The notes below the pieces were generated by a model. The model was given only the letters and a program-made list of their open reading frames with translations. It had not been told where the DNA came from and made no database searches. A stretch of DNA of 54,262 bases from an uncultured Clostridia bacterium. Lineage in GTDB: Bacteria; Bacillota; Clostridia; TANB77; CAG-508. Made by a program: the position numbers and the translations under genes. The stretch spans positions 1 to 54,262 of the forward strand of contig CALXJR010000001.1 of assembly GCA_944388675.1 (NCBI GenBank), read 5' to 3'. Every line of letters begins with the position of its first letter. Position 1 is the stretch's first letter. Of the stretch, positions 12,726 through 38,197 are shown in pieces.

Positions 12726-13811
12726 ATGGCTAATCCAATGCAAAAAAAATCAAGAAGATCTTTTATTTTAGGTATTTTAGTAGCAGTTGTCTTAATGGGA
12801 GTTGTTGTTGCTATATTATTAATGCAGATAAGCAAATTAAAAGAAGAACAAGATCAATTAATTGCAAATAGAGTTAAAGTATATGCATTAAATAAAGACA
12901 TAAAATCAGGACAAATAATTACTCAAGACATGCTTACCGAAATAGAAACCGATAAAGGTGGTGTACCAAATAATGCAATTAATAATCTAAATGATTATTA
13001 TCTAGTTGACCAAGATGGTAATGATATTATTACTGTGTCACAAAAAGATGAGAATGGCAATGAAAGACTAGTTACATGTGTAGTTATAGAAGGTAGAAAT
13101 TATGCAATTGAGAATATAAATGAAAATACAGGAACAATAACATTTAATGGACAAACTAGAACAATTATAATGAATTCAGCTCCTGTATTAGCAAAAATTG
13201 ATATGAATCAAAAAACAATTTTAACTAGTGATTCAGTTGTAAAAAGTACAGAAACTATAACTGATTCAACAAGATTACAAGAATATAATATGATTATGCT
13301 TTCTACAGGTCTAACTTCAGGTGACTTTATAGATATAAGATTAAGAATGCCATCTGGAGCAGACTATTTAGTAGTATCTAAAAAACAAGTTGAAGTTCCT
13401 ATTATAGATGGTGCTGAATCAGTAAACACAATATGGGTAAATTTAACAGAAGATGAAATATTAACAATGAGCAATGCAATTGTTGAAGCATATATGATGG
13501 AAGGTGCAGTTCTTTATACAAGCAAATATGTAGAGCCAGGAATGCAAGAACAAGCAACGCCAACATACATACCAAGTGATGCTGTTAGAAGTTTAATTGA
13601 AAGAGATCCAAACATTGTACAAGAAGCTAAAAATGCAATATTAACAAGATTTAATGAAAATCAAACTGATGTTAGAGGAAGCATAAATGGAGAGCTTTCA
13701 CAAATAGAACCAGAAGATAGAACAACAAATTTAAATACTGGAGTAACAACAGAAGTAACAAATGCACAACAACAAAGACAATCATATTTAGATGCGCTTG
13801 CAGGAAACTAA
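12726..13811 (+). CDS. CpaB/RcpC-like pilus assembly protein (TM anchor + SAF-like domain)
   Basis: N-terminal TM (SFILGILVAVVLMGVVVAILLM). SAF-like segment NRVKVYALNKDIKSGQIITQDML and GDFIDIRLRMPSGADYLVVSKKQVEVP resemble CpaB. GGAGG RBS. Confidence 0.6.
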   Translation: MANPMQKKSRRSFILGILVAVVLMGVVVAILLMQISKLKEEQDQLIANRVKVYALNKDIKSGQIITQDMLTEIETDKGGVPNNAINNLNDYYLVDQDGNDIITVSQKDENGNERLVTCVVIEGRNYAIENINENTGTITFNGQTRTIIMNSAPVLAKIDMNQKTILTSDSVVKSTETITDSTRLQEYNMIMLSTGLTSGDFIDIRLRMPSGADYLVVSKKQVEVPIIDGAESVNTIWVNLTEDEILTMSNAIVEAYMMEGAVLYTSKYVEPGMQEQATPTYIPSDAVRSLIERDPNIVQEAKNAILTRFNENQTDVRGSINGELSQIEPEDRTTNLNTGVTTEVTNAQQQRQSYLDALAGN

Positions 13812-13841
13812 AATAAAACATAATAAATCAGGGAGGAAACA

Positions 13842-14540
13842 ATGAAAAAGATAGGCTTTATAGGTGTATTCGACAAAACAGATTTAATAATGTACATTTC
13901 AAGAGTATTAGTCGCAATGGGAAAAAAAGTACTAGTTATTGATTCGACCGTGAATCAAAAAGCAAAGTATATTGTCCCTAAAATTAATCCTACAGCTTCT
14001 TATGTAACTGAATTTGAAGGAGTAGATGTATCAGTTGGTTTTAGAGACTATGACTCTATAAAAGACTATCTTGGTATGCCTAGATCAGCAGTATTAGTAT
14101 ATGACTATATTTTTATAGATTTGGATGACCCAACATTATTAGAAAGCTTTGAGATTAATGCTGCAGACAAAAATTATTTTGTAACCTCTCCTGATTTGTT
14201 TTCGCTAAAAAAAGGCTTGGAAATACTTAGTGGTGTAAGGCAACCAATGGAATTAACAAAAATATTATTTTCAAATAAAATGTCTCAATCTGAAGATGAG
14301 TATTTAAATTTCTTATCTTTAGGATATAAAATAATATGGAGCCCAGAAAAAATATATTTTCCAATGCTAACAAATGATTTAGATATAATAATGGAAAATC
14401 AAAGATTATCAAAAATAAAATTTAAGGGATTAAGCTCAGAATATAAAGAATCACTTATATACTTAATTAACCAAATAAATGAAGAAAATAATACATCTAA
14501 CGTTAAAAAGATAATTAAATTATTAGAAAAAGGAGTATAG
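13842..14540 (+). CDS. MinD/ParA/CpaE-fold protein with degenerate P-loop
   Basis: KKIGFIGVFDKTDLIMYISRVLVAMGKKVLVIDST aligns with the MinD beta1-P-loop-helix, but GKS/T is replaced (GVFDKTD). Walker-B-like YDYIFIDLDD. Confidence 0.55.
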   Translation: MKKIGFIGVFDKTDLIMYISRVLVAMGKKVLVIDSTVNQKAKYIVPKINPTASYVTEFEGVDVSVGFRDYDSIKDYLGMPRSAVLVYDYIFIDLDDPTLLESFEINAADKNYFVTSPDLFSLKKGLEILSGVRQPMELTKILFSNKMSQSEDEYLNFLSLGYKIIWSPEKIYFPMLTNDLDIIMENQRLSKIKFKGLSSEYKESLIYLINQINEENNTSNVKKIIKLLEKGV

Positions 14541-14541
14541 T

Positions 14542-15381
14542 ATGGCAATCGTATCTTTTTGGAGTAATAGTAAAAGAGAGACAGGACAAACATTATCTTC
14601 AGTTGCAATAGCCACCTGTATGGCAATAGACCATAATAATAAAATATTAGAAATTGCAACTGGATTTCAAGATAGCACTGTAGAAAACTGCTTCTGGGAC
14701 CCTAATAAATCAGCTTTAAATCAGGTAATACCTGGAATGAATAGAGCATCTTTTAATAACGGTGTAGAAGGACTAGTAAAGATAATGCAAAGTAATAGAA
14801 CATCTTCAAACATTGTATCTGATTATGCAAGAGTTGTATTTAAAGATAGATTAGATGTTTTACCTGCTCCATCTACCAATAATTTGGTTGAATATAATAA
14901 AACTACAGAATACTATTCACAATTAGCATCAATAGCAAATAGAGATTACAATTATGTGTTTATTGATATAGACAGAAGAATGCAAGAACAAAGTAAACAA
15001 AGCATTTTAGCACAATCAGACATTGTTGTATTTACACTTAAACAAGGATATGAATCTCTAAAAGACGTTATAAATTTAAGAAAAGACAACGATATTTTTA
15101 AGAAAGACAAAGTAGTTTTATTAGTTGGCAAATATGATAAATTTTCTAGATTCAATGTAACAAACATGTCCAGAGAATTAAAAGAAAAAAGAAAGATGGT
15201 TGCTATTCCATATAATACATTATTCTTTGAAGCTTCATCAGAAGGTACTGTTGCAGATTTCTTTATTAAATATAGGGGAATAACTGACCAAACTGATAGA
15301 AATTACATTTTTATTCAAGAAACAAAAAGAGCTTGTGATGAAATCATAAATAAATTTCAAGAATTACGAATGAGACAATAG
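14542..15381 (+). CDS. Second MinD/ParA/CpaE-fold protein with degenerate P-loop
   Basis: AIVSFWSNSKRETGQTLSSVAIATCMA occupies the P-loop position without GK[ST]. Walker-B-like YNYVFIDIDRR. It starts 1 nt after the previous stop. Confidence 0.55.
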   Translation: MAIVSFWSNSKRETGQTLSSVAIATCMAIDHNNKILEIATGFQDSTVENCFWDPNKSALNQVIPGMNRASFNNGVEGLVKIMQSNRTSSNIVSDYARVVFKDRLDVLPAPSTNNLVEYNKTTEYYSQLASIANRDYNYVFIDIDRRMQEQSKQSILAQSDIVVFTLKQGYESLKDVINLRKDNDIFKKDKVVLLVGKYDKFSRFNVTNMSRELKEKRKMVAIPYNTLFFEASSEGTVADFFIKYRGITDQTDRNYIFIQETKRACDEIINKFQELRMRQ

Positions 15382-15407
15382 TAGCCTTATAGAAAGGAGA
15401 ATAAGAC

Positions 15408-17321
15408 ATGAATCTAACTAATCTAATATTAATAGTTGTTATATTAGGAGTTGCATTTGCAGTTGTTCGTAAATTCCTTCAAAAAAGACAAAATGAAAAA
15501 TCAGACGAAAAAATACAAGTAGATGATAAAACTTATACATTAGAGACAATGACTGAATTTGTAAAAAAGAGACTAGATGAAATTACAAAAATAAACTTAT
15601 ATGATATAGGTCTTTCAGAAGAGGAATTAAAAAGGAGAAAAAATAAAAAATATGAGCTAAAAAAAGCTTTGAAAGGCTGTACATATGGAGATATAAATGA
15701 TAAAAGATATGTTAAGGAATTAATATATGATTTACTTTATAATGAATATGGTGTTGATGAAATAAATGTATCAAAAGCAATCCCTTTTGATGTTCCATCA
15801 TTATTAACAGCACAAGATAAATTCGATATTATATTATATATGTATAAGAATGAATTTGGTTATGAAGCTCTAACAGAAATAATAAAAAAATACAACTTAG
15901 CAGATTTAAAATATATAGCTGGAGATTCTAAACCTTCTTATGTTATAACTCCTGAAGAAATAAATGATATATATGAAAAAGAAAATTTTGCTTTAACATT
16001 CCAAGATAAATTAAATGTAGTTGTTCAAAGAATATATCAACATTACAAAGGCTATAGTAGTATTGATGAGATTAGAGATATGAACATAGATGGTATTTCA
16101 GGTGGTGTATCTGGACTTCCTGAAAGCTTTTTAAGCCAAGTTGCTCAGACAGATAGTGATTATTTAGGACAAATAGCAGAGCACAAAGTACCACGTGCCT
16201 GTGATAGTATTTGGATAATGTTCCAAGGTAAATCTATCCGTTTAGCTTTTCTTTCATTTGGAACAGAAGCAGAACTTAAAAGAGTTTGTCAAAACATATA
16301 TAAATTCAATAACCCTGGTCAGTTATCTGATACAAATGGTTATAAAATCAATGAAATGAAAGATGGATCTCGTGTTGTTGTTGTAAGACCAAGTATGTCT
16401 GAAACATGGGCATTCTTCGTAAGAAAGTTCGATGTTAAGCGTGCAACACTAGAACAAATAGTAAGATTTCCAGGAAAAGAAGATACAATTGATTTACTAA
16501 AATACTTAGTAAAAGGTGCAAGAATTATATCACTTACTGGTGAGCAAGGTTGTGGTAAAACAACAATGCTTATGGCTATGATAGAAAATATTTATGAAAC
16601 AATGAACTTACGTATCACAGAAACTGCATTCGAGCTTCACTTAAGAAGAATATATCCAACAAGAAATATATTATCAATGCGTGAAACAGAAACAATTTCA
16701 GGACAGGAATGTTTGGATGTTCAGAAAAAGACTGATGGTTCTGTTAACATCATAGGTGAGGTTGCAACAGACCCCGTAGCATCTTGGATGATTCAATCAG
16801 CACAGGTTGCATCTAAATTTACATTATTTACTCACCACGCAAAAACATTCCCAGACTTAGTTACAGCTCTTCGTAACTCAATGTTAAGAGCAGGAGTTTT
16901 CTCAGATGAAAGAACTGCAGAAGAGCAAGTTGTACAAGTATTGAACTTTGATATTCACCTAGTTAAAGACTTTAGAGGAAGAAGATATATAGAAAGAATA
17001 ACTGAGTGTATTCCAGTAGAAGATAAAAATGAATATACATATAACTACAGAAATGAAAAAACAATGGAAGGCAAAATAGAAAAATTCATGGATAATGCAA
17101 CTATATACTTTACAAAAAGTACAAATAGAGAATTATACCAATATAGAAATATATTAGAGTACCATGATGGAGAATATGTATTAACAAATCCAATATCAGA
17201 AAAAAACATTAAAGAAATGTTAAACAATATGGATGATAATGATGCAGAAGAATTTAAAAAATTCGTAAAGAGAAATTGGGGAATAGAAGCACACAGAGAT
17301 TCTGAAATGATAAATGATTAA
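15408..17321 (+). CDS. CpaF/TadA-like type IV filament ATPase with N-terminal TM anchor
   Basis: Walker A GEQGCGKTT (16539-16565), ITETAFELHL, DGSVNIIGEVATDP (Walker B region), His-box FTLFTHHAKT, RGRRYIERITECIP. The N-terminus MNLTNLILIVVILGVAFAVVRKF is hydrophobic. Confidence 0.75.
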   Translation: MNLTNLILIVVILGVAFAVVRKFLQKRQNEKSDEKIQVDDKTYTLETMTEFVKKRLDEITKINLYDIGLSEEELKRRKNKKYELKKALKGCTYGDINDKRYVKELIYDLLYNEYGVDEINVSKAIPFDVPSLLTAQDKFDIILYMYKNEFGYEALTEIIKKYNLADLKYIAGDSKPSYVITPEEINDIYEKENFALTFQDKLNVVVQRIYQHYKGYSSIDEIRDMNIDGISGGVSGLPESFLSQVAQTDSDYLGQIAEHKVPRACDSIWIMFQGKSIRLAFLSFGTEAELKRVCQNIYKFNNPGQLSDTNGYKINEMKDGSRVVVVRPSMSETWAFFVRKFDVKRATLEQIVRFPGKEDTIDLLKYLVKGARIISLTGEQGCGKTTMLMAMIENIYETMNLRITETAFELHLRRIYPTRNILSMRETETISGQECLDVQKKTDGSVNIIGEVATDPVASWMIQSAQVASKFTLFTHHAKTFPDLVTALRNSMLRAGVFSDERTAEEQVVQVLNFDIHLVKDFRGRRYIERITECIPVEDKNEYTYNYRNEKTMEGKIEKFMDNATIYFTKSTNRELYQYRNILEYHDGEYVLTNPISEKNIKEMLNNMDDNDAEEFKKFVKRNWGIEAHRDSEMIND

Positions 17322-17357
17322 AAATAGTAGCTTTCAAGGAGGTGCAAATATATAGTA

Positions 17358-19436
17358 ATGAACAGTGACATGATCAAATACTTGATGATTGGTGTAGGAG
17401 TATTATTTGCAATTATTGTTGTTGCATATTTAATGCTTCGTAAAAAGATGCAAAGTTCTGATATAGTACAAATTAAACAATTAAGACAAGGAACAAAAGA
17501 AAACAAGTTCTCTATGGAGATACTATATCAAAAACTTTATGTTTTCTATATAAAAACACCTTTCTTAAAGAGATATTTGTTTAAAATAAGAAGAAGACTT
17601 GAAATCATAAATATAGATGATGAATATTTAACAAGAAAACAAACTTCAAAAATTTTAACAAATGCATTATTAATAATAATTCCATTAACAATAGTTATTA
17701 TATTTATAACTAAGAATAATGGGTTACTATTATCAATCCTACTTATATTTGAAATTTTTATGATAGATACCCTAGTTGATGGAATGGTTGACAAAATAGA
17801 TAATAAACTATTAGTTCAACAAATAGACTTCTTTGCAGAAATAAGACATGCTTACCATGAATACAACATGGTAGAGGAAGCAATATATCAAGTAGCTCAA
17901 GGTGATAGTGCTCCAGAAATGTCTAGACAAGCAGAAAAAATATATGAAATATTAATATCTGATGATCCTGAAAGTGAACTTGAAAAATATTATGATGTAG
18001 CACCAAATAGTTACTTAAAAGAGTTTGCAGGAATTTCATATCTTACAAAGGAATTTGGTGATAGAACAGTAGATAAATCATCTCTTTATTTAAAAAATCT
18101 AAATAATATAAGTCAAGAAATGCAACTAGAAATTTTAAAGAGAGATAAATTAGACTATGTTTTCCAAAGCTTATCAGTAATTGCGATAGTACCACTACTT
18201 GCATTAGAGCCTATAAAAAATTGGGCAGTATCTCAATTCTCATTTACAGAATCTTTCTATAATGGAAAAAACGGTATGATTGTTCAAATCCTAATGGTTG
18301 TATTAACTTTTATATGTTACATACTTTTAAGAAAGATAAAAGATAATGGCTCTACAAAAATAGAAGTAAGATCTGATAATCCTTGGGAAGAAAAAGTATA
18401 TAAAATTCCAATAATAAAACAAATAGTAGATGCCTTTGTTCCAAAGGAAGGAACAAAGGAGAGAAGAAAATTAAATAATCTAAAAAAAGATGCTGCTTCA
18501 AAAGATAAAATACAATGGTTATATGTTAAAAGGCTTTTACTTACTGTTGTAACATTTGTTGGCTCATTAGTAATATTTACTCAATTACACAAATTACAAA
18601 TTAATTATATATATACAGAACCAACTTCAACATATAACATAATAGGTGAAATGACTGATAAAGACATGAAACAGGCAATGGAAATAACAGAAAGTGATAA
18701 TAAATTTCTTGATATGTTTAGAGGAAAAACAGATACTACTCAAGAAGACATAGAAAAAGAAATGGCAAAATCAGAAGATTATGAAAATAGTGATGATGAT
18801 GAAATAGAAACAGCAGCAAAAAGAGTACTTGACAAATTAAGACAAGTAAACAGTGAGTATTTAAGCTGGTTTGAAATGCTTATGGCAATAGTATTTGCTG
18901 TTGTAGGTTATAATTTACCAGTATGGTTATTATATTTCCAAGCTAAGATGAGACAAATTGAAATGGAAGATGAAGTAATGCAATTCCAGACAATTATCTT
19001 AATGCTTATGAGAATTGAAAGAGTAAATGTTGAAATGATTCTAGAATGGCTTGAAAGATATTCAAATATATTTAAAGAACCAATTTCAAAATGTGTTAAT
19101 GACTATGAAAGTGGACCTTGGGAAGCTCTAGAACAAATGAAAGAAGAAGTAAACTACAAAGAGTTTATTCGTATTATAGAAAGTCTTCAAGCAGCAGTAG
19201 AAAAAATACCAATTGCAGAAGCATTTGATGAACTTGATTCTGAAAGAGAATACTATCAAGCAAGAAGAAAAGAATCTAATGATAGATTAATTTCTAAAAA
19301 AGGTATGATAGGAAAAGGTATAGGATTTGCTCCTATGGTATGCTTATTTGTAGGTTACTTAATTGTACCATTAGTATTTATAGGATTAACAAGTATGACA
19401 TCATCATTTGATACAATGACCTCAATGGCAAATTAA
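17358..19436 (+). CDS. Polytopic membrane protein, fused TadB/TadC (T2SS-F)-like platform
   Basis: Multiple TM helices flank two helical cytoplasmic segments (EIRHAYHEYNMVEEAIYQVAQGD... and ESGPWEALEQMKEEVNYKEFIRIIESLQAAVEKIPIAEAFDELD) that resemble T2SSF repeats. Its position after the ATPase fits this role. Confidence 0.55.
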   Translation: MNSDMIKYLMIGVGVLFAIIVVAYLMLRKKMQSSDIVQIKQLRQGTKENKFSMEILYQKLYVFYIKTPFLKRYLFKIRRRLEIINIDDEYLTRKQTSKILTNALLIIIPLTIVIIFITKNNGLLLSILLIFEIFMIDTLVDGMVDKIDNKLLVQQIDFFAEIRHAYHEYNMVEEAIYQVAQGDSAPEMSRQAEKIYEILISDDPESELEKYYDVAPNSYLKEFAGISYLTKEFGDRTVDKSSLYLKNLNNISQEMQLEILKRDKLDYVFQSLSVIAIVPLLALEPIKNWAVSQFSFTESFYNGKNGMIVQILMVVLTFICYILLRKIKDNGSTKIEVRSDNPWEEKVYKIPIIKQIVDAFVPKEGTKERRKLNNLKKDAASKDKIQWLYVKRLLLTVVTFVGSLVIFTQLHKLQINYIYTEPTSTYNIIGEMTDKDMKQAMEITESDNKFLDMFRGKTDTTQEDIEKEMAKSEDYENSDDDEIETAAKRVLDKLRQVNSEYLSWFEMLMAIVFAVVGYNLPVWLLYFQAKMRQIEMEDEVMQFQTIILMLMRIERVNVEMILEWLERYSNIFKEPISKCVNDYESGPWEALEQMKEEVNYKEFIRIIESLQAAVEKIPIAEAFDELDSEREYYQARRKESNDRLISKKGMIGKGIGFAPMVCLFVGYLIVPLVFIGLTSMTSSFDTMTSMAN

Positions 19437-19450
19437 AGAAAGGATAAATT

Positions 19451-20074
19451 ATGGAGAATGCAGCAAAAGCATTGCAAATGGCAGCTGGAATATTATTTTC
19501 AGTAATAATAATAGCAGCTTTAGTCTTTGCATATAGCAAAATAAGTGAATTAAAACAAACTGAAGAAGATGTTGACGCAGAGCAAAAAGCAACAGAATTT
19601 AATGGAAGTTATGAGCTATTTAATAGATCTGGTGTATATGGTAGTGAGCTTCTTTCACTTGCGAATAAAATGGATGATTATAATCTTAAACAAGCTGACG
19701 AACAAGGATATCAAGAAATCTCACTATCTGTTACACTTACTCCTCCAATTGGAGCACAAGTATATACAAGTAGTAGCTATGATGCAAATTCTTTAACTCA
19801 ATGTTACAATGAATTATCTCAAAAAATAAGAGATGCAAATGAAAAAATAAATGGAAAAAATATTTCCTATTGGGCAGGTTCATCAAGTGAGGTTAGAAGA
19901 ACGTTTACAAATACAACAAGTCCAACTTATAGTGAAATTTCTGAAAAAATAAAAAATTATAATGCTTTAGTTTCAGAAAGAGATGATATTTCTAGAAAGA
20001 TATTTAATTGTACAAAAGTTGATTATGATGAAAATAATGGAAGAATAATTAAAATGTATTATGAAGAACCATAG
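19451..20074 (+). CDS. Pilin-like protein, MENA-type N-terminus (207 aa)
   Basis: MENAAKALQMAAGILFSVIIIAALVFAY. C-terminal FNCTKVDYDENNGRIIKMYYEE is shared with two paralogs. Confidence 0.6.
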   Translation: MENAAKALQMAAGILFSVIIIAALVFAYSKISELKQTEEDVDAEQKATEFNGSYELFNRSGVYGSELLSLANKMDDYNLKQADEQGYQEISLSVTLTPPIGAQVYTSSSYDANSLTQCYNELSQKIRDANEKINGKNISYWAGSSSEVRRTFTNTTSPTYSEISEKIKNYNALVSERDDISRKIFNCTKVDYDENNGRIIKMYYEEP

Positions 20075-20121
20075 AACTTTACTTTGTATAAAATACTGCT
20101 AAAAAGGAGGTCTAGATAGTA

Positions 20122-29163: not shown

Positions 29164-31776
29164 ATGGCAGAATTTTCACCAATGATGCAACATTACCTTG
29201 CAACAAAGGAAAAGTATAAAGATTGTATATTGTTTTACAGATTAGGAGATTTTTATGAAATGTTCTTTGATGATGCTATAAATGTATCAAGAGAGCTAGA
29301 ACTTACTCTAACAGGAAAAGAATGTGGACAAGAAGAAAGAGCTCCTATGTGTGGTATTCCATACCATGCTGCAGAAACATATATATCTAAACTTGTTGCA
29401 AATGGTCATAAGGTTGCAATTTGTGAGCAGTTAGAAGATCCAAAGCAAGCAAAGGGAATGGTAAAAAGAGATGTAATTAGAATAATAACTCCTGGAACTG
29501 TAACAGAATCAAATTTATTAGAAGAAAAGAAAAATAATTTTATAATGAGTATTTTTCAAAATGGTATGTTTTTTGGAATTGCAGTATGTGATATTTCAAC
29601 AGGAGATTTTTATTCTGCAGAAATCAAAGAAGAAAATAATTTTGAAAGACTACTTGATGAAATTTCAAGATATTCACCATCAGAGATAATTGCGAATAAA
29701 ATGCTAGCTGGTTGCAAAGAAGAAATGGACAAAATAAAAGAAAGATTTGATGTTTATATGTCTTGCGAAGATGAAGAAAACTTTAGTCAAGATACAAAAA
29801 ATATATATATGCAATACACAATTACAGATGATAAAGGAAATGTAATAAAAGATTTAGAAAAAAGATTATTTGCAGTTTCAGCAATTAATGGACTTATTAA
29901 ATATATAGAAGATACCCAAAAAACAAAGTTAGAACATATAAATAAAATTACTATATATACAATTACTAAATATATGGCTTTAGATATAAATGCTAGAAGA
30001 AATTTGGAATTAACAGAAAAATTAAGAGATAAATCTAAAAAAGGAACTCTTTTATGGGTATTAGATAAAACAGCAACTTCTATGGGAGGTAGACTTTTAA
30101 GAAGATGGATAGCAGATCCATTAATAGATGTAGCTGAAATAAATGATAGGCTAGAAGCGGTACAAGAATTAAAAGATGATGTTATATTAAGAGGAGATTT
30201 AGAGGAAGCTCTAAAAGGAGTTTATGATATAGAAAGGTTAGCTGGAAAAATATCTTATGGAAGTGCTAATGCAAGAGACTTAAATTCATTAAAAGCTTCA
30301 AGTGGTAAATTGCCACAAATAAAACAATTACTTTTAAATTGTAAATCTAATATGCTAAAAAAATTATATGAAGAATTAGATCCTTTAGAAGACATATATT
30401 CATTAATAGATAAAGCAATAGTAGAAGATCCTCCAATTTTAATTACAGAAGGAGGAATAATTAAGATTGGTTATAATCAAGAAATAGATGAGTTAAAAAA
30501 AGCCATGACTGATGGAAAAACATGGCTTGTAGAATTAGAAGCAAGAGAAAGGGAGAAAACTGGAATAAAAGGTTTAAAAGTAGGTTATAACAAAGTATTT
30601 GGATATTATATTGAAGTTACTAAATCAAATTTATCAATGGTTCCAGACAATTATATTAGAAAACAAACTTTAACTGGTGGAGAAAGATATATTACAGAAG
30701 AATTAAAGGAATTAGAAAGTAAAGTATTAGGTGCAGAAGAAAAAGTAGTAAGTTTAGAATATAACGAATTTGTAAAAATAAGAGATTTTATTAAAACTCA
30801 AATATTAAGATTACAAAAGTCAGCTATGGCAATTTCAAAATTAGATGTTCTATGCTCTTTTGCAACTGTTGCAGAAGATTTGAATTATTGCAAACCAACA
30901 GTTGATAATAGTGGAGTAATAGAAATAAAAGATGGACGCCATCCAGTAATAGAAAAAATGTTACCAAGTGGAAGCTTTGTATCAAATGATACATATATGG
31001 ATAAAGAAGAAAATAGATTATCTATTATAACAGGTCCTAATATGGCTGGAAAATCTACATATATGAGGCAAGTTGCATTAATAACTTTAATGGCTCAAAT
31101 AGGAAGTTTTGTTCCAGCAAGTTCAGCACATATAGGTGTTGTAGACAAGATTTATACAAGAGTTGGAGCATCAGATGACTTAAGCATGGGACAAAGTACC
31201 TTTATGGTAGAAATGATGGAAGTTGCAAATATTTTAAAAGAAGCAACTGCAAATAGTTTAATAATATTAGATGAAATAGGAAGAGGAACATCAACTTATG
31301 ATGGACTCTCAATTGCTTGGGCTGTTGCAGAATATATAGCAGATAAGCAAAAATGTGGAGCAAAAACATTATTTGCAACACACTACCATGAACTAACACA
31401 ATTAGAAAATACATTAGAAGGTGTAAAAAATTACTCAATTGCAGTAAAAGAAAAAGGAGAAGATATTATCTTCTTAAGAAAAATAGTACCAGGTGGAACA
31501 GATGAAAGTTATGGTGTACATGTTGCAAGACTTGCAGGAGTTCCAAAACAAGTAACATCTAGAGCAAACGAAATATTAAAATCAATAGAAAGAAAAAATA
31601 TATTATCTAATAAGAATATAGAAAAAGAGAATAAAAAACAAGTGGCAGGGCAATTAGATATGTATAACTTTAAACTTGCAGAAATAGCTCATGAACTAGA
31701 TAAAGTAAATGTAAATGAATTAACTCCAATAGATGCTTTAAATACATTAGTTAAAATAAAAGAAGAAATGAAATAG
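29164..31776 (+). CDS. mutS: DNA mismatch repair protein MutS
   Basis: FSPMMQHYL, FYRLGDFYEMFFDDA, Walker A GPNMAGKSTYMRQ, DEIGRGTSTYDG, THYHEL. Confidence 0.95.
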   Translation: MAEFSPMMQHYLATKEKYKDCILFYRLGDFYEMFFDDAINVSRELELTLTGKECGQEERAPMCGIPYHAAETYISKLVANGHKVAICEQLEDPKQAKGMVKRDVIRIITPGTVTESNLLEEKKNNFIMSIFQNGMFFGIAVCDISTGDFYSAEIKEENNFERLLDEISRYSPSEIIANKMLAGCKEEMDKIKERFDVYMSCEDEENFSQDTKNIYMQYTITDDKGNVIKDLEKRLFAVSAINGLIKYIEDTQKTKLEHINKITIYTITKYMALDINARRNLELTEKLRDKSKKGTLLWVLDKTATSMGGRLLRRWIADPLIDVAEINDRLEAVQELKDDVILRGDLEEALKGVYDIERLAGKISYGSANARDLNSLKASSGKLPQIKQLLLNCKSNMLKKLYEELDPLEDIYSLIDKAIVEDPPILITEGGIIKIGYNQEIDELKKAMTDGKTWLVELEAREREKTGIKGLKVGYNKVFGYYIEVTKSNLSMVPDNYIRKQTLTGGERYITEELKELESKVLGAEEKVVSLEYNEFVKIRDFIKTQILRLQKSAMAISKLDVLCSFATVAEDLNYCKPTVDNSGVIEIKDGRHPVIEKMLPSGSFVSNDTYMDKEENRLSIITGPNMAGKSTYMRQVALITLMAQIGSFVPASSAHIGVVDKIYTRVGASDDLSMGQSTFMVEMMEVANILKEATANSLIILDEIGRGTSTYDGLSIAWAVAEYIADKQKCGAKTLFATHYHELTQLENTLEGVKNYSIAVKEKGEDIIFLRKIVPGGTDESYGVHVARLAGVPKQVTSRANEILKSIERKNILSNKNIEKENKKQVAGQLDMYNFKLAEIAHELDKVNVNELTPIDALNTLVKIKEEMK

Positions 31777-31955
31777 ATTTTACTAAAAACTTTTGCCTAA
31801 AAAGGAGCATTCTTCTTGGTCGAAAGTTTCTGGAAAAAATATAAAAAATAGTGAGTATTTTTCTTGCTATTTTTTTCATTCTAGTGTAAAATATTATATG
31901 AAAAGTGTATTATAATCAATTTATGTGCAAAAAATAACAAAGAGAGGGATTATAT

Positions 31956-32360
31956 ATGAAAAAAGTAGTCGCAATTATATCTATAATTTTTTGTATAATT
32001 GGATGTACATCTGTTTATGCAGAAAATGATACAAATGTAGTCACACAAGAAAGCACAACAGGAAAATTAATAGAGATAAAGGAAAAAGAACTAAATACAT
32101 TAGATGAATATAAAGAGGCTTATGGTTCAGATGCATATGGACTAACAGCTTACTTACTAAATAGAATAAGAATTTATAGTATACCATTTGGCTTTGTGGC
32201 AATTGTAGTGGCTGCTATATATCAGTATATAATTGGATTAAAAAAATTAGATGTTAGAGATAAAGGTTTTGCTTTAATGATTACAAGTGTTACATTAGTT
32301 GTAATATGTCAAGTATTGCCACTTGTTTTTGCCATAGTAGTTAAAGGTTGGAGGAGTTAA
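31956..32360 (+). CDS. Small secreted/membrane protein (signal peptide or lipobox IIGC, plus 2 C-terminal TM helices)
   Basis: MKKVVAIISIIFCIIGCTSVYA, followed by two hydrophobic helices. GAGAGGGA RBS. Confidence 0.55.
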   Translation: MKKVVAIISIIFCIIGCTSVYAENDTNVVTQESTTGKLIEIKEKELNTLDEYKEAYGSDAYGLTAYLLNRIRIYSIPFGFVAIVVAAIYQYIIGLKKLDVRDKGFALMITSVTLVVICQVLPLVFAIVVKGWRS

Positions 32361-32363
32361 CAA

Positions 32364-34907
32364 ATGAAAGTATTATTTGCTGTAAATAATGAAAAAGTTT
32401 CAGAATCAATAATAAAAAAATATCAATCTATGTATAAAGAAATAATTTCATCTAAAAATGTTTACTTTTTTAATAATATAATAAATGAATTACAAAAAGA
32501 TAAATCATATGATAGAGTTGTTATAGGAGAAGATGTAGAATTATTTTCTAATAAAAACTATGATGTTATTGATAATTTTATATTTGATAAATTAGATGCA
32601 ATTAGTGATGAAGCATCTAATAGTGTAGAAGGAGATATTCCTATTATATTTATTGCATCAGAAAGAAGAGAAAAAGGAGATCCAATATTAGTTAAATTAT
32701 TTGGAATTGGTATATACAATGTTTTATTAGGAAATGATAGAAGTACAGAGAATGTATGTAGATTAATAAATCAGCCAAGAACAAAAAAAGAAGCTAAAAT
32801 ATATTATAAAATAGAATCAGATGATATTGAATATAAACCGGTTAATCCTGATATTGTCCCAGAAGATGAAATGAACAATATTATCAGACATTATAAAAAA
32901 ATAGATGGAAATGAAGATGCTTATGTATCTAGTTTTGATGATATTGCAGGACAATATACACAAACACAATTAAAAATTATAGCTGCCAAATTACCTCTTA
33001 AAGTTAGAGCGGTACTTGAAGCTAGGTCACCTAAATATCAAGAAGTGATGATTGGTAGTGTGAAAGGTCAAGTTAAAAATCCACCAGCAAAACAGGGTGA
33101 AAAAATTACAACAAGAGATATAAACAATGTATCAAATGATCCTAAAAAAATAAGTTTAATAAATCAACAGTTACGTGGAAATAGATTAACAAAACCTGTT
33201 GTAATTCCTTCGCCAGTTAAATTTCAAAATGTTGAAAAAGTATATAAAAATAATCCTCAAACACAGACTAACATTTTACAAACGCAACAAAATATTCCAA
33301 CTTACAAAGAGGAAAATAATAATTTAGCTCAGACTACAGCTACTCAATATCAACCAATTTCTCAAGTACAAAAACCAATGAATATAAATGAAACTGATGA
33401 ATTACCTATTTCTCAAAATATTGATGAAAGTGAAAATACAGCTATAGTAGAGCAAAAAAGAAAAAGAGGAAGACCTAAGAAAGAAAAAACACCTGAAGAG
33501 CTTATGCAAGAAAATAAGCCAAAAGGAAAAAGAGGAAGACCTAAGAAAAATCCTCAACCTGAAGAAGATGGCATGGAAACAACTGAAAATGAAAAAGAAA
33601 CTACTACTTTACAGCCAATTGATGAAGAACCAATTGATTTATTTACTTTAGGCGATGATGAAGATAATGTAACAACTGAACCAAAAAAAGATGTTGAAGA
33701 AGGAACTATATTACCAGGTTTAGATATAACAGATGATGATGATTTAGATAATGGATTAAGTAATAATATAGGAAATGATGGTTATAAGAATTTAAATCCA
33801 ACTACAGTTAATCCAACCACTGTTAATCCAACAATTGTATCGCCAGCGTACAACAATACTGGCACTACTATAAATACTCCAAATAAAGCTCAATATATCA
33901 ATAATGGAACACAATCTTTTAATCAACCAAATAATAATTTATACGGAACTAATACTTATGAAGCACCAACAGATTTACAAGAGGTTAATATAAATAATAA
34001 TGTTGACTTATCAAGTCTTTTGGTTGGTGATAAAAAAATTGTAGCTTTTGTTGGTACTACTAAAAACGGAACATCATTTTTAATAAACAATCTAGCATGC
34101 TTATTATCAGAAAAAGGTATAAAGACAGCAATTTTAGATCTTACAGAAAATCAAAATGCATATTATATATATAATCTAAATGATGATGATTTAAGAAATA
34201 AAGCAAATAATTGTATTGAAGGTCTTAGAGCGGGAAGAGCTGATGGAATTCCAGTAAATAAAAATCTTACTGTTTATACTACAATTCCTGGAAAGGAAGA
34301 AAATTACCAAGATTATGGAAATATTTTAGAAACTTTAGTAAGAAATTATTCATTAGTATTATTAGATTGTGATTTTAAAACTTATACACAATATTTTGTA
34401 AATGTTCAAGAAATATATCTAGTACAAAGTTATGATATATTAACAATACAGCCATTAACAGCATTCTTAAATGAATTAAAGCATAAAAATGCTTTAGATG
34501 AAAGTAAGTTAAGAATAGTTATAAATAAAGCTCTTAATGTAAGAATGTTAACAGATAAAATGATTGTTGATGGATTATCATGTTATAATGATTCAGCTGC
34601 AACATTCCAGAGACCACTATTTGATAGTAAGACAATTAAGTATACTAAAATTCCATTTGAAGAACAAACATATGCAAGATATCTAGAAAGACTTGTTGAT
34701 TGTAAAATCAATTTAAATGGATACTCAAATACGTTTATGGAAGCATTAAATAGATTAGGAACAATGGTCTATCCACTTATTGCAAATAATATAAAATATG
34801 GACCAAACAAAAACTATAATGATTATAATAAATTTGGAAAAAAACGACCAACTCAATTTAATAGTAGTATGGATGAAACTTTAAATAAAATGAGAAAAAA
34901 TATATAA
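32364..34907 (+). CDS. Pseudo-receiver / AT-hook x2 / degenerate ParA-MinD-fold protein (TadZ/CpaE-like architecture, 847 aa)
   Basis: N-terminal CheY-like fold lacking the acidic pocket (MKVLFAVNNEK..., IPIIFIASE). Q/N/P/T-rich linker with KRKRGRPKKEK and KGKRGRPKKNP. C-terminal KKIVAFVGTTKNGTSFLINNLACLLSEKGIKTAILDL and YSLVLLDCDF. Confidence 0.6.
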   Translation: MKVLFAVNNEKVSESIIKKYQSMYKEIISSKNVYFFNNIINELQKDKSYDRVVIGEDVELFSNKNYDVIDNFIFDKLDAISDEASNSVEGDIPIIFIASERREKGDPILVKLFGIGIYNVLLGNDRSTENVCRLINQPRTKKEAKIYYKIESDDIEYKPVNPDIVPEDEMNNIIRHYKKIDGNEDAYVSSFDDIAGQYTQTQLKIIAAKLPLKVRAVLEARSPKYQEVMIGSVKGQVKNPPAKQGEKITTRDINNVSNDPKKISLINQQLRGNRLTKPVVIPSPVKFQNVEKVYKNNPQTQTNILQTQQNIPTYKEENNNLAQTTATQYQPISQVQKPMNINETDELPISQNIDESENTAIVEQKRKRGRPKKEKTPEELMQENKPKGKRGRPKKNPQPEEDGMETTENEKETTTLQPIDEEPIDLFTLGDDEDNVTTEPKKDVEEGTILPGLDITDDDDLDNGLSNNIGNDGYKNLNPTTVNPTTVNPTIVSPAYNNTGTTINTPNKAQYINNGTQSFNQPNNNLYGTNTYEAPTDLQEVNINNNVDLSSLLVGDKKIVAFVGTTKNGTSFLINNLACLLSEKGIKTAILDLTENQNAYYIYNLNDDDLRNKANNCIEGLRAGRADGIPVNKNLTVYTTIPGKEENYQDYGNILETLVRNYSLVLLDCDFKTYTQYFVNVQEIYLVQSYDILTIQPLTAFLNELKHKNALDESKLRIVINKALNVRMLTDKMIVDGLSCYNDSAATFQRPLFDSKTIKYTKIPFEEQTYARYLERLVDCKINLNGYSNTFMEALNRLGTMVYPLIANNIKYGPNKNYNDYNKFGKKRPTQFNSSMDETLNKMRKNI

Positions 34908-34930
34908 TAAACAAAATGAGGTGATACTTT

Positions 34931-36016
34931 TTGATAATTGTTATATTATTACTTGTAGCAATAATAGTAGGATTAATGTTTTACAATATGTCTATACACA
35001 AAAAAGTAGAAGCATTTAAAAATATAGACCAACAAATAACGAGTTTAAATGTATTGCAAGATTTTATGAATACTATAAGTGAATCATCATCAGCAGATGA
35101 AAAGTTAAAGAAAATAAATGATATTTTAATAGAAAAATATAAAATAAAATATTCAACAATAGTAGTATATAATGGAGCAGAATATGAGATAAAAGCTTCC
35201 AATGTTGCACAAAAGCATTGGGATGCATTAAAAAATCTACAATCTGAACCTATATTTAAAGATAGTATAGAAACTGCAACACCTAAGTATATTACTGTAA
35301 ATAATGAGAATGAAAAATTGCCATATCAAAAAATGGAATTTGGTAGAGCAAAATCAGCAATGTTTTTTCCGATATATATAGATAATGTTTATATTGGTTA
35401 CTGGATAATAGAAGGAAGTACACCCCATGAATTTGATAATGTAGATACAACAATACTTGAAGTGGTAAAAAATAATATTGTTTCAGTTTTAAAAACAGTT
35501 GAAAATCAATCAGTAGTTGAACAAATTGTAAGAGATGATTTATACTCAGAATTAAAAACAGCAGAATATTTATATACAGATGGTAAAAAAATAATAGATA
35601 AATTTGATAAATCTACAGTTTGTCTATTTAAAATAATTAATTTAGTACAAATAAATCAAAATGTTAGTAGAAAAACAGGAGATAATGTAATTACAGAAGT
35701 TTGTAAAACTATAAAACAAGAACTTGCTCCAGAATACTTATTTGTTAGATATATGGGACCAAAGTTTGCAATTGTTTTTTCTGGTGTTGAAATTGACTCT
35801 ATTGAGGAATATATGAAAAATTTAAAACAAAAGGTTGAATCATTAAAAATACCACCAGCACAGGACTATAAAGGTAAACCAGTAGAAGTTTCACCATTAA
35901 TAAATATTGCACTTGCTACATACTATAAAGGCACAATTTTAGTTGGTGTAACAAAAAAATTGGAAGAATATTTAGATACTGCAGATCCTGCAGAGAGTAA
36001 TATAAATTTTTTATAG
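34931..36016 (+). CDS. Membrane-anchored sensor-like protein with degenerate GGDEF domain
   Basis: TTG start with GAGGTGA RBS and an N-terminal TM helix. The GGDEF-domain-like C-terminus (DDLYSEL..., SRKTGDNVITEVCKTIKQEL, FVRYMGPKFAIVFSG) has MGPKF in place of GGDEF (35753-35767). Confidence 0.55.
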   Translation: MIIVILLLVAIIVGLMFYNMSIHKKVEAFKNIDQQITSLNVLQDFMNTISESSSADEKLKKINDILIEKYKIKYSTIVVYNGAEYEIKASNVAQKHWDALKNLQSEPIFKDSIETATPKYITVNNENEKLPYQKMEFGRAKSAMFFPIYIDNVYIGYWIIEGSTPHEFDNVDTTILEVVKNNIVSVLKTVENQSVVEQIVRDDLYSELKTAEYLYTDGKKIIDKFDKSTVCLFKIINLVQINQNVSRKTGDNVITEVCKTIKQELAPEYLFVRYMGPKFAIVFSGVEIDSIEEYMKNLKQKVESLKIPPAQDYKGKPVEVSPLINIALATYYKGTILVGVTKKLEEYLDTADPAESNINFL

Positions 36017-36025
36017 GAGGTTTTT

Positions 36026-36280
36026 ATGGTTACAGACGAGACAGTAAGTTATAATGTGGAAAAAGAAAAGAATACAAAAACAAGAGAAATCTTAAAGGAA
36101 GTGTATAAAGCATTAACTGAAAAAGGATACAATCCAATAAATCAAATTGTAGGATATATACTTTCTGGTGATCCAACATATATTACAAGTCATAATAATG
36201 CTAGAAATTTAATAAGACAAGTAGAAAGAGATGAATTATTAGAAGAAATGGTAAAAACATATATAGGATTGGACAAGTAA
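36026..36280 (+). CDS. IreB-family regulatory phosphoprotein (UPF0297)
   Basis: [39 protein letters not shown]. Conserved position upstream of ruvX. Confidence 0.8.
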
Positions 36281-36281
36281 T

Positions 36282-36710
36282 ATGAGAGCTTTAGGAATTG
36301 ACTATGGAGATGCAAGAGTAGGAATAGCTATTACAGATCCATTATGGATTACAGCTCAGGGATTAGAAACAATACATCATCAAGGAAATGATAAAATTGT
36401 TTTAAAAAGATTAGAAGAAATATTAAAAGAATATGATATTGATACAATGGTTGTAGGTATGCCATTAAATATGAATGGAACAAAAACAGAAAGAGCAGAA
36501 ATTACAGAAAAATTTATACATAAATTGCAATGCAAATTTAACAAAATAAAAATATTAAGTGTAGATGAAAGACTTACAACAGTTGAAGCACATAAAACTA
36601 TGAATTTTTTAAATATCAATAAACACAAAAAAAGAAATGTAGTTGATACTATATCAGCTGTATATATACTAGAATCTTACATGAAAATGCAAGAAAATAA
36701 AAAAGTATAA
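36282..36710 (+). CDS. ruvX: Putative pre-16S rRNA nuclease / Holliday junction resolvase-like YqgF
   Basis: MRALGIDYGDARVGIAITD...VVGMPLNMNG...DERLTT. Confidence 0.9.
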   Translation: MRALGIDYGDARVGIAITDPLWITAQGLETIHHQGNDKIVLKRLEEILKEYDIDTMVVGMPLNMNGTKTERAEITEKFIHKLQCKFNKIKILSVDERLTTVEAHKTMNFLNINKHKKRNVVDTISAVYILESYMKMQENKKV

Positions 36711-36776
36711 AAGATTTTAATATTGTAGAAATACAAATTAAATATAAATTTTAAAAAAATTGAAAGGAGAAATAAA

Positions 36777-37097
36777 ATGAGTGACGAAAGAATACAAGAT
36801 AATGCTAACGAAGAGCAAGATGACAATATAATAATACTAAATGACGAGGATGGAAAGGAAAATAGATTTGAATTTTTAGATTTAGTAGATTTAGACAATG
36901 AACAATATGTAGTTTTATTACCAGCTGATGAAGCTGATTCAGATGAACCAGGAGAAGTAGTTATTCTTAAAGTTGAAGATTCAGATGATGGTTCAGATGA
37001 GGAATCTTTTGTAAGTGTTGATGATGAAAAAGTACTAAATGAAGTATTCGAAATGTTTAAACATAAATTTAAAGATGAATTTGATTTTGTAGATTAA
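36777..37097 (+). CDS. DUF1292-family acidic protein
   Basis: DEDGKENRFEFLDLVDLDNEQYVVLLP. Typical gene following ireB-ruvX in Firmicutes. Confidence 0.75.
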   Translation: MSDERIQDNANEEQDDNIIILNDEDGKENRFEFLDLVDLDNEQYVVLLPADEADSDEPGEVVILKVEDSDDGSDEESFVSVDDEKVLNEVFEMFKHKFKDEFDFVD

Positions 37098-37111
37098 TTT
37101 AATTATTAATA

Positions 37112-37136
37112 ATGAGCAGTTTTTACAACTGCTCAT
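37112..37136 (+). terminator. Hairpin after the DUF1292 gene
   Basis: 10-bp perfect stem atgagcagtt/aactgctcat, 5-nt loop. The T-tract is weak. Confidence 0.5.
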
Positions 37137-37171
37137 GTGTAATTATTTATAATAATAGGGGGACTTAAAAG

Positions 37172-37639
37172 ATGAAAAATTTTAGTACTTGGATGATTTT
37201 AAGCCTAGATGTTATTTTTTGGATTTTAAGAATTATAGCTACATATACAGATGCAATGGGAATGGAATTTTTGATTAAGCCTATGGACGTTAATACAGAA
37301 ATATTGTTATTATTTGTTGCATTAATTTCTTTTCTATTTATAGCAAAAAGAAAAATATTCGGAGGTGTACTATATTTAGTTGCATATGCAGGATATTTTG
37401 GAGTTTATTTATGGAACTACTTTACAGCAACAGAGGGACAAATGACAGACGAATATCTTAATGTATTTTTCTCTTTTATAGGAATTATATTACCTATAAT
37501 AACTTTACTTGATTTATTCCTAGACAAAAATAGAAAATTACGTCCAACAGATAAAAAAACAGACTGGTTTTATAGAAATAAAAAATATGATATACAAAAA
37601 GATGAAAGAGCAGATAAAAATAATTATAGAACATTATAA
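37172..37639 (+). CDS. Integral membrane protein (4 TM helices)
   Basis: Hydrophobic helices. GGGGGA RBS. No motif recognised. Confidence 0.55.
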   Translation: MKNFSTWMILSLDVIFWILRIIATYTDAMGMEFLIKPMDVNTEILLLFVALISFLFIAKRKIFGGVLYLVAYAGYFGVYLWNYFTATEGQMTDEYLNVFFSFIGIILPIITLLDLFLDKNRKLRPTDKKTDWFYRNKKYDIQKDERADKNNYRTL

Positions 37640-37640
37640 T

Positions 37641-37685
37641 AAAAAATACACTATATTGTAGTTAATAAATATAGTGTATTTTTTT
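37641..37685. terminator. Bidirectional terminator between convergent genes
   Basis: aaaaaatacactatat ... atatagtgtatttttt: a 12-bp core stem flanked by an A-run and a T-run. Confidence 0.75.
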
Positions 37686-37699
37686 AATATGAATACGAT

Positions 37700-38197
37700 T
37701 TAATTTTTAGAATCATTTGCAAGACTTGTATTTAGTGCTACATTATTTTTTTGAATTAATCTTAAAATAATTCTACTAACAGGACCTGCAACTAAGATAT
37801 TTAAAAAGAATGCTGCACAGAAGTTTCTAGGCCATCTAATAAAAAATTCACTAAAAATAGTTTGAGCATTATCTCCGCCTAAAAATCCACCAATAATTGT
37901 CATTATTAGAGACATAAATGTAACAATAAAGAAACAATTGAAAAGAATATATGCATTTTTACTATCAGTTTTTGAAACAAATTTATGCAATAAAGCATGA
38001 TTAATTCTTCCTATAATCAAATTTTCTAAAATAAATGCAATTATAAATGTTACAGGAAATGCAATAAATGTAGTTTTTATAGATTCTAAATTAAATCCAC
38101 CTAAATGAATAGAAATATTTAAAAGTCCCATAAAAAATACCATTATTAAACATATTGCAATACCAAATATTAATTCCTCTTTCTTATTTGTTGGCAT
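37700..38197 (-). CDS. DUF2798-like integral membrane protein
   Basis: Four TM helices. Start set at ATG 38197 (MPTNKKEELIFG) with an AGGAGGA RBS at 38204-38210. Confidence 0.6.
   Translation of the reverse strand: MPTNKKEELIFGIAICLIMVFFMGLLNISIHLGGFNLESIKTTFIAFPVTFIIAFILENLIIGRINHALLHKFVSKTDSKNAYILFNCFFIVTFMSLIMTIIGGFLGGDNAQTIFSEFFIRWPRNFCAAFFLNILVAGPVSRIILRLIQKNNVALNTSLANDSKN

Follow-up and report, generated by a model that had tools for sequence, protein, structure and literature searches.

ParA/MinD proteins normally reach the nucleoid or the membrane through an ATP-dependent dimer, and the locus described here raises the question of what two AT-hooks do in a protein with this fold. The protein has 847 residues and is encoded in a stretch of 54,262 nucleotides (hereafter the window, meaning the whole stretch that was analysed; contig CALXJR010000001.1 of assembly GCA_944388675.1) from an uncultured Clostridia bacterium of the order TANB77, whose assembly comprises 1.45 Mb with a guanine-plus-cytosine (GC) content of 27.4%. 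A first-pass annotation of this DNA had proposed that the P-loop of the protein is degenerate, that the hooks replace ATP-dependent nucleoid binding, and that an associated machine is positioned on the chromosome in this way. We suggest a somewhat different answer, to which we give a probability of roughly 55%. The protein would be anchored to the AT-rich chromosome by its two hooks (four, should it form a dimer of the ParA type), the assembly would be brought to the membrane by the folded ends, the C-terminal tail and two membrane partners, and an acidic segment may tune the binding. The hooks would then have been added to a TadZ-like scaffold, and would be no substitute for a lost ATP-dependent DNA-binding surface.

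In order to locate the hooks, we retranslated the open reading frame (ORF), and the positions given in the first-pass annotation for both RGRP cores and for the loop GTTKNGTS were all reproduced. The first core (residues 368-371, nucleotides 33465-33476) lies in KRKRGRPKKEKTPEE (residues 365-379) and the second (residues 390-393, nucleotides 33531-33542) in KGKRGRPKKNPQPEE (residues 387-401), and the hook-region peptides read from the translation are EQKRKRGRPKKEKTPEEL and KPKGKRGRPKKNPQPEE. Both copies show an Arg-flanked GRP core with basic flanks, KRK-RGRP-KK and KGK-RGRP-KK, respectively. When we compared the linker peptide with the Pfam AT_hook family (PF02178), it scored 18.5 bits in two stretches against a gathering cut-off of 17.4, and a peptide built from the commonest family residues scored 25.7 bits. 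From the amino-acid composition of the 1327 ORFs of at least 100 residues in the genome (422,543 residues), 0.58 RGRP would be expected genome-wide. The 847-residue protein was the sole RGRP-bearing ORF among them, with two copies 22 residues apart.

The hooks are strongly conserved among homologues. Exactly two RGRP were present in each of the 120 nearest homologues (53-67% identity). The homologues number more than 6000, and clustering at 50% identity gave 212 groups with E<=1e-30. Of 149 cluster representatives at this identity level, 82 carried two RGRP, 3 carried three, 1 carried six, 8 carried one and 55 carried none, many of these 55 being fragments. At 76 species-level genomic loci from other species, at least two hooks were found in 75 of the 76 P-loop-bearing ORFs, the lone exception being a truncated ORF at a contig edge, and the spacing between hooks was most often 21-23 residues. 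A position table of 280 hooks from 140 sequences gave K(81-93%)-[RK]-[GRK]-R-G-R-P-[RK]-K, with RGRP at 100% and the last Lys at 99-100%; the selection demanded GRP in a basic context, and the independent evidence therefore lies in the flanking positions only. The commonest hook of the family, KRGRGRP[RK]K, is identical with the sequence of HMGA1 hook 1. The linker around the hooks showed a column conservation of 0.1-0.3 and a length of 212-1172 residues across the family, is rich in Gln, Asn, Ser, Thr and Pro, and was unalignable outside conserved islands. Based on the Pfam score and the family-wide invariance, we regard the motifs as genuine, canonical AT-hooks under strong purifying selection, and the comparison places them in what is predicted to be an intrinsically disordered linker between folded end domains (the AlphaFold2 (AF2) models covered residues 1-300 and 543-847). 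Tethering to AT-rich DNA appears to be their most plausible role.

The designation of the hooks as eukaryote-style is apt for the sequence, although AT-hooks were already known from bacteria, in CarD (PMC4374960) and WhiB7. We also weighed, and rejected, an origin of the hooks by horizontal transfer out of a eukaryote: the motif has 9 residues only, uses host-preferred codons and stands in a bacterial gene context, so that convergence is the simpler reading. The first-pass annotation had also pointed to an identical 22-nucleotide DNA repeat in the hooks. The repeat AAAAAGAGGAAGACCTAAGAAA is indeed present in exactly two copies (33461-33482 and 33527-33548), and 0 of 100 shuffled sequences gave a 22-nucleotide match, but it is no independent DNA feature. 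When we compared same-residue codon pairs between hook 1 and hook 2 in 51 species, 75% were identical, with AGA, AAA, GGA and CCT dominating, and most of the 51 species showed synonymous differences between the two hooks. The identity is explained by a repeated peptide and a narrow codon usage, recent gene conversion not being required, and the synonymous variation over an invariant peptide indicates that selection acts on the protein.

We then examined where the family occurs. Among 400 sampled genomes of the class, full-length strong matches were found in the order of the window only, in all 16 of its sampled genomes, and two weak matches to the C-terminal domain were found outside the order. 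Within TANB77, 78 of 81 genomes contained the protein. When species genomes were scanned, 513 loci were obtained, and the best 80 of the 513 were all from uncultured Clostridia, e.g. CAG:245, CAG:508 and CAG:571. No Pfam domain was annotated among the more than 6000 homologues, and the only source name shown was 'hypothetical protein'. Judging from these matches, the family is confined to the order TANB77. Its nearest out-group appears to be a receiver-like/ParA-like protein of 429 residues that heads a Tad operon in a 3.4-Mb Clostridia genome outside the order (locus L087, 539-5581), followed there by SAF/CpaB-like, ParA-like, CpaF-like and TadB-like genes, and this relative points to an evolutionary link to Tad systems. 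A homologue search started from it returned 5 proteins only and was uninformative.

The history of the hooks was followed on a quick maximum-likelihood tree (IQ-TREE) built from the N- and C-terminal domains of full-length representatives, 84 in number. On this tree, 2 changes account for the hook label: the hooks appear once, at the root of a clade of 65 rows, and disappear once, in a nested clade of 10 rows. Both nodes had an approximate likelihood-ratio test (aLRT) value of 100, and 0 of 500 label shuffles gave a number as low. The tree argues that the hooks were gained once, in one clade, and have been kept almost everywhere since. Many basal members without hooks end in KKGLFG, RRGLFG, KKGLFK or GLFKRR, and often carry KKGGLFG..KK at the start of the linker. 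Examples of such motifs in hook-less members are P0199, P0207, P0215, P0216, P0231, P0236, P0249, P0250 and L083:4215-7133. We take these KKGLFG-type motifs to resemble the membrane-targeting sequence (MTS) of E. coli MinD (...KKGFLKRLFGG). The family alignment suggests that attachment may be supplied by short motifs that differ between lineages.

The proposal that the hooks replaced a lost activity depends on the P-loop. When we aligned the C-terminal domain with E. coli MinD using hhalign, a low-probability local match of 31 columns covering the P-loop and helix 1, used for register only, placed Thr at both Walker-A lysines, the signature and the catalytic one, with one internal Lys. The deviant Walker A motif KGGxxGK[ST] is absent, and the lysine-less pattern is conserved family-wide: G564 and G569 are invariant, K567 is near-invariant, and so is the loop GT[ST]KNGTS as a whole. 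Invariant Asp residues stand at positions resembling Walker A' and Walker B, namely D592 (aligned to MinD D38 in the same weak 31-column match) and D668 and D670 in LLDCDF, and N721 is conserved as well. The 429-residue relative outside the order shows an equivalent lysine-less pattern, GNRKAGTT. TadZ of E. rectale is reported, in PMC10482377 citing Xu et al. 2012, to have lost both lysines and kept ATPase activity, another lysine compensating. The loop had been called degenerate, and both lysines are in fact missing, but decay does not describe it, because the loop is near-invariant and older than the hooks, the Asp residues are conserved, and the distant Tad-operon relative shares the pattern. 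The loop is better regarded as a conserved variant that probably still serves as a nucleotide site.

Since the lysine-less loop is also present in basal clades without hooks, it predates the hooks. TadZ-type relatives are not known to bind the nucleoid. The claim that the hooks replace ATP-dependent nucleoid binding therefore fails on the order of events: with a loop older than the hooks and relatives that are no known nucleoid binders, there would have been nothing to replace, and the hooks seem to be a later addition to an older scaffold that was already without the lysines.

The folded parts of this scaffold were assigned by structure prediction. Conservation along the protein falls into an N-terminal block (residues 1-235), a motif (261-295), a variable linker to approximately residue 550 and a C-terminal block (550-847), and the hooks (361-400) and an acidic stretch (421-460) are conserved islands in the linker. 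The AF2 model of residues 543-847 reached a predicted local distance difference test (pLDDT) value of 85 and a predicted template-modelling (pTM) score of 0.81, and Foldseek against the PDB matched this domain to ParA 3ea0, BcsQ, FlhG, MinD, Soj, FleN and HypB with E-values of 2.5e-8 to 1e-5. It thus has the SIMIBI-type P-loop NTPase fold of ParA/MinD by model and structural match. The N-terminal region matched VraR, RcsB, NarL and the CpaE receiver domain 4n0p (E-values 3e-4 to 5e-3), the latter with a root-mean-square deviation (rmsd) of 3.4-3.8 Å over approximately 138 columns. A phospho-acceptor site of the receiver type was not found in this domain. An invariant Glu56 follows strand 3 and Asn8-Asn9 stand in place of the acidic pair, as placed from the AF2 secondary structure without superposition and with the invariance read from the family alignment columns. 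The N-terminal receiver is, on this reading, predicted to be phosphorylation-incompetent. A receiver-like N-terminus and a ParA/MinD-fold C-terminus, hence a TadZ/CpaE-like layout, had been suggested before, and AF2 and Foldseek bear this out at the level of the fold. By sequence profile (Pfam CbiA, AAA_31 and ParA), the protein is not a ParA/MinD member. Pfam gave CbiA only, at 15.4 bits and below the cut-off of 25.4 bits, with no helix-turn-helix (HTH), and no NCBIfam profile matched. Sequence searches of the PDB with the whole protein, the C-terminal domain and the family profile gave nothing meaningful, the profile returning low-complexity matches (huntingtin polyQ).

Charge changes sharply along the linker, with a net charge of +9 over residues 361-400, which contain the hooks, and then of -21 over residues 401-470. 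The motif P[VI][VI]IP[ST] at the linker start was found in nearly all hook-bearing representatives. The tail is conserved in the hook clade as FSxxMNxTLNKM[KR]xxY, and its hydrophobic moment of 0.47 was reached by 2% of shuffles, although the same measure failed to separate known MTS peptides; a contact of the tail with the membrane or with a partner is possible.

The binding target of RGRP cores is the minor groove of A/T tracts. In the mechanism that we propose, each core would insert into the minor groove of such tracts, which are abundant in a chromosome of 27% GC. Each chain has two hooks, and a dimer of the ParA-fold domain, if it forms as in the relatives, would bring together four, so that nucleoid binding would be multivalent and largely sequence-unspecific. 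Several AT-hooks can bind multivalently, and their spacing affects affinity (PMC11354804). The assembly would be membrane-associated, because membrane-protein genes adjoin the gene at 79 of 86 and 85 of 86 loci and the C-terminal tail is amphipathic. The protein could in this way link the chromosome with a membrane complex, or the nucleoid could serve as a positional cue for that complex. The acidic segment after the hooks may modulate binding, as in HMGA or CarD. Several points weigh against this reading. Family f2 (approximately 577-590 residues, with approximately 40 residues between the folded domains), family f3 (approximately 970 residues) and one nested subclade have no hooks, and the core function therefore would not need them. 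The tail is polar, with a mean hydrophobicity of -0.34, which makes membrane binding uncertain. Dimerisation and nucleotide binding of the C-terminal domain are presumed by analogy with relatives, and AT-hooks can also bind RNA (PMC11354804). If the reading is right, AT-hooks built into a ParA/MinD member would be a second way to the nucleoid, one based on motifs, and there would be a further clear example of a bacterial lineage in which a canonical pair of HMGA-type AT-hooks has become fixed. The protein is unannotated yet near-universal in TANB77, a widespread uncultured order of the human gut with very small AT-rich genomes, and it probably belongs to the core cell biology of the order.

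A bolder version, which we offer tentatively and consider rather unlikely, is that the attachment motif itself was swapped in evolution, with MinD-type KKGLFG motifs in the basal members and the AT-hook pair gained by one clade. The hook protein, with its amphipathic tail and two membrane partners, would then be a nucleotide-independent, or nucleotide-modulated, nucleoid-membrane tether or a positioning device resembling nucleoid occlusion. If true, a prevalent uncultured order of the gut would possess a chromosome-organising system of a new class. We find it improbable, on the other hand, that a dead ParA lost its ATP-dependent nucleoid binding and that the hooks took this over so as to place the Tad-like pilus machine encoded nearby on the chromosome. 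The ParA/MinD fold without lysines, the Tad-like locus 7.6 kb upstream in the window, the position of the closest out-of-order relative (L087, 429 residues, GNRKAGTT) at the head of a Tad operon, and the near-universal presence of both the pilus ATPase and the 847-residue family in the order all speak for such a history. However, three genes of the Tad locus (the ATPase, a 692-residue platform-like protein and the ParA-like gene) were found in 0 of 86 homologous neighbourhoods, and the pilus locus has its own ParA-like gene, in which hhalign detected no real similarity to the C-terminal domain. In family f83, the pilus ATPase had matches of 22-23% identity only in six genomes and no match in two, and 6 of these 8 genomes carry the 847-residue family protein without a close orthologue of the ATPase; genome G056 likewise carries it without the ATPase. 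These results argue against the nearby Tad-like locus being the associated machine of the first-pass annotation. The lysine-less loop, near-invariant and present in clades without hooks as well, predates them, and E. rectale TadZ is reported to keep ATPase activity although both lysines are missing (PMC10482377, citing Xu 2012). A canonical Soj-ParB pair is present in the clade as well, and the 847-residue protein is therefore not the chromosome-partition ParA.

The hooks and the acidic region could instead act on promoters or on nucleoid structure, as in an architectural or transcription factor like CarD of M. xanthus or HMGA, with the pseudo-receiver and the ParA fold as regulatory or oligomerisation modules. 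The layout of hooks followed by an acidic segment matches HMGA/CarD, and the best N-terminal Foldseek matches are full-length response regulators with DNA-binding outputs (VraR, RcsB, NarL), but these were matched at an rmsd above 10 Å with template-modelling scores (TM-scores) of 0.33-0.47, Pfam found no HTH in the protein, hook-less family members retain the same folded domains, and the fixed partners are membrane proteins, with no genes linked to RNA polymerase; we therefore give this role little credence. A low probability also attaches to the view that the hooks bind a ligand other than duplex DNA, namely RNA, anionic phospholipid, or an acidic LPG[LF][DE]/IDLF segment of the protein itself or of a partner, as a latch or in a condensate. 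For the AT-hooks of SWI/SNF, a preference for RNA has been reported (PMC11354804), the segment with a net charge of -21 follows directly downstream, and basal relatives bear membrane-type basic-hydrophobic motifs at comparable places. A generic basic patch, however, would tolerate Lys/Arg swaps and loss of Gly or Pro, whereas Gly and Pro of RGRP are invariant in 280 of the 280 hooks of the position table, which fits minor-groove geometry, and a genome of 27% GC offers abundant preferred substrate. The probability that the hooks are a chance match without function is negligible. The linker is of low complexity and the codons for Lys, Arg, Gly and Pro are A-rich or common in this genome, but two RGRP within a window of 23 residues, against 0.58 expected genome-wide, the invariance of the motif across hundreds of species, and a single gain with near-universal retention rule this out by conservation.

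Comparison with known systems also bears on our preferred reading, the chromosome-membrane tether. TadZ/CpaE is the localisation factor of Tad/Flp pili. The 847-residue protein is like it in having an atypical receiver N-terminus and an atypical ParA/MinD-fold C-terminus, in lacking both Walker-A lysines (as reported for E. rectale TadZ), and in having its nearest out-of-order relative encoded in a Tad operon. It differs in that its sequence matches no PDB chain and no Pfam profile above the cut-off, its gene lies outside a tad/flp locus (0 of 86 neighbourhoods), its domains are set apart by a linker of 300 residues that is predicted to be disordered and contains AT-hooks and acidic motifs, it has an amphipathic C-terminal tail and an additional helical subdomain, and the fixed partners are a small protein with two transmembrane (TM) helices and a degenerate-GGDEF membrane protein. 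MinD, together with FlhG/FleN and BcsQ, shares the fold (Foldseek TM-scores of 0.6-0.7, normalised to the target), and hook-less family members end in motifs that resemble its MTS. In contrast, the deviant Walker A KGGxxGK[ST] of MinD is absent here, and the hook clade carries putative DNA-binding motifs; we know of no MinD with such motifs. By fold, the protein is thus comparable to TadZ/CpaE and MinD-class scaffolds, yet it lacks the defining features that were tested, i.e. the deviant Walker A, a profile match and a location in a tad locus.

HMGA and CarD share with the 847-residue protein the RGRP cores with basic flanks and the presence of more than one hook beside an acidic segment, here in a region that is predicted to be disordered. 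CarD of Myxococcus xanthus has a disordered HMGA-like domain with an acidic segment and four RGRP hooks, and binds DNA (PMC4374960). The protein has two hooks, with three being rare and six found in one relative, where HMGA and CarD have three or four, and it is therefore no HMGA-like array of three or more hooks, although the acidic region is present. Moreover, the acidic segment precedes the hooks in CarD and follows them here, and the hooks stand between two folded domains of a ParA/MinD-class protein, with no RNA-polymerase-binding module. Noc, the nucleoid occlusion protein of the ParB family in B. subtilis, binds specific Noc-binding sites (NBS) through its ParB fold and the membrane through an N-terminal helix. 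In the tether that we favour, one protein would likewise be on both the chromosome and the membrane, but the two proteins have no homology, and the 847-residue protein would bind the minor groove with low specificity. When we searched the literature for AT-hook, ParA and nucleoid together, no paper describing such a fusion was found, and no publication describing the family of the protein was found either.

The features of the locus are collected in Table 1.

Table 1. Positions in the window of the 847-residue gene, its parts, its neighbours and the pilus locus
Feature	Coordinates	Strand	Basis
Gene for the pseudo-receiver / AT-hook / ParA-MinD-fold protein, 847 residues	32364..34907	+	ORF
Receiver-like (CheY-fold) domain, residues 1-150	32364..32813	+	AF2 pLDDT ~90, Foldseek
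Conserved five-helix subdomain, residues 160-232	32841..33059	+	AF2 helices 167-230, pLDDT ~85; column conservation 0.8-0.9
Motif ..LTKPVVIPS..QNV.K.Y, residues 261-295, linker start	33144..33248	+	Conserved island
AT-hook 1, KRKRGRPKK, residues 365-373	33456..33482	+	RGRP core, Pfam AT_hook, family conservation
AT-hook 2, KGKRGRPKK, residues 387-395	33522..33548	+	RGRP core, Pfam AT_hook, family conservation
Acidic segment, residues 401-470, motifs E.IDLF.L and LPG[LF][DE]	33564..33773	+	Charge, motif alignment
ParA/MinD-fold domain, residues 551-812	34014..34799	+	AF2, Foldseek
Variant Walker-A loop GTTKNGTS, residues 564-571	34053..34076	+	hhalign register on MinD GKGGVGKT
C-terminal tail ..FNSSMDETLNKMRKNI, conserved amphipathic helix	34848..34904	+	Tail conservation, hydrophobic moment, AF2 low confidence
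Upstream partner gene, 134 residues, signal/lipoprotein-like leader, two TM helices	31956..32360	+	3-nt gap; 79/86 neighbourhoods
Downstream partner gene, 361 residues, one TM helix and degenerate GGDEF (YMGPKF)	34931..36016	+	Pfam GGDEF E=3.4e-9; 85/86 neighbourhoods
ireB, ruvX and DUF1292, downstream	36026..37097	+	Pfam IreB, DUF1292; 85, 85 and 81 of 86 neighbourhoods
Tad-like pilus locus, 7.6 kb upstream of the 847-residue gene	12726-24711		Pfam
ParA-like gene (AAA_31) of the pilus locus	14542-15381		

Among the neighbours, the 134-residue upstream protein starts with a lipoprotein-like leader (..IIGC) and has a C-terminal pair of hydrophobic helices with a short basic loop between them, and no Pfam or NCBIfam profile matched it. 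In the downstream protein, all lineages that were checked have a degenerate GGDEF signature (YMGPKF, YSGSKF, YCGPKF and YSGARI, the orthologues L081-L086 included), indicating a conserved non-catalytic GGDEF, and the protein may be a receptor or scaffold. A parallel to the degenerate-GGDEF neighbour, by analogy only, is offered by BcsQ and FleN, which work with partners that bind cyclic di-GMP. The gaps within the three-gene module are 3 and 23 nucleotides. The ruvX gene was matched by no profile and was identified by synteny and by reading its sequence. mutS adjoins the module in 13 of 86 neighbourhoods only, against 85 of 86 for ireB-ruvX. When we scanned from the mutS stop to the gene after DUF1292 (31600 to 37800, including 31777-31955), no intrinsic-terminator-like site was found, and a promoter scan of the AT-rich locus DNA was uninformative, with fewer matches than in shuffles. 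From this arrangement, the operon likely extends into ireB-ruvX.

Some minor observations concern the linker and the pilus locus. The motif LPG[LF][DE] occurs in one to five copies, in acidic context, in the linker beside the hooks. A reading of E.IDLF.L as a beta-clamp-binding or FtsZ-tail-like motif was considered and dropped. A tandem pentapeptide, NPTTV in three copies (33795-33839), lies where the linker is least conserved and richest in gaps (column conservation 0.14-0.24). The first gene of the pilus locus also encodes a protein of 361 residues; it was tested as a paralogue of the 847-residue protein and is not paralogous. Orthologues of the pilus ATPase (15408-17321 in the window) contain one in-frame TGA in many genomes of family f2 (those listed are G305, G089, G119, G331, G420, G432, G438, G441, G444, G453 and G459), and in several genomes of family f1 the ATPase is split into two ORFs (approximately residues 1-386 and 380-630). 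These interruptions could reflect recoding, a real split or decay.

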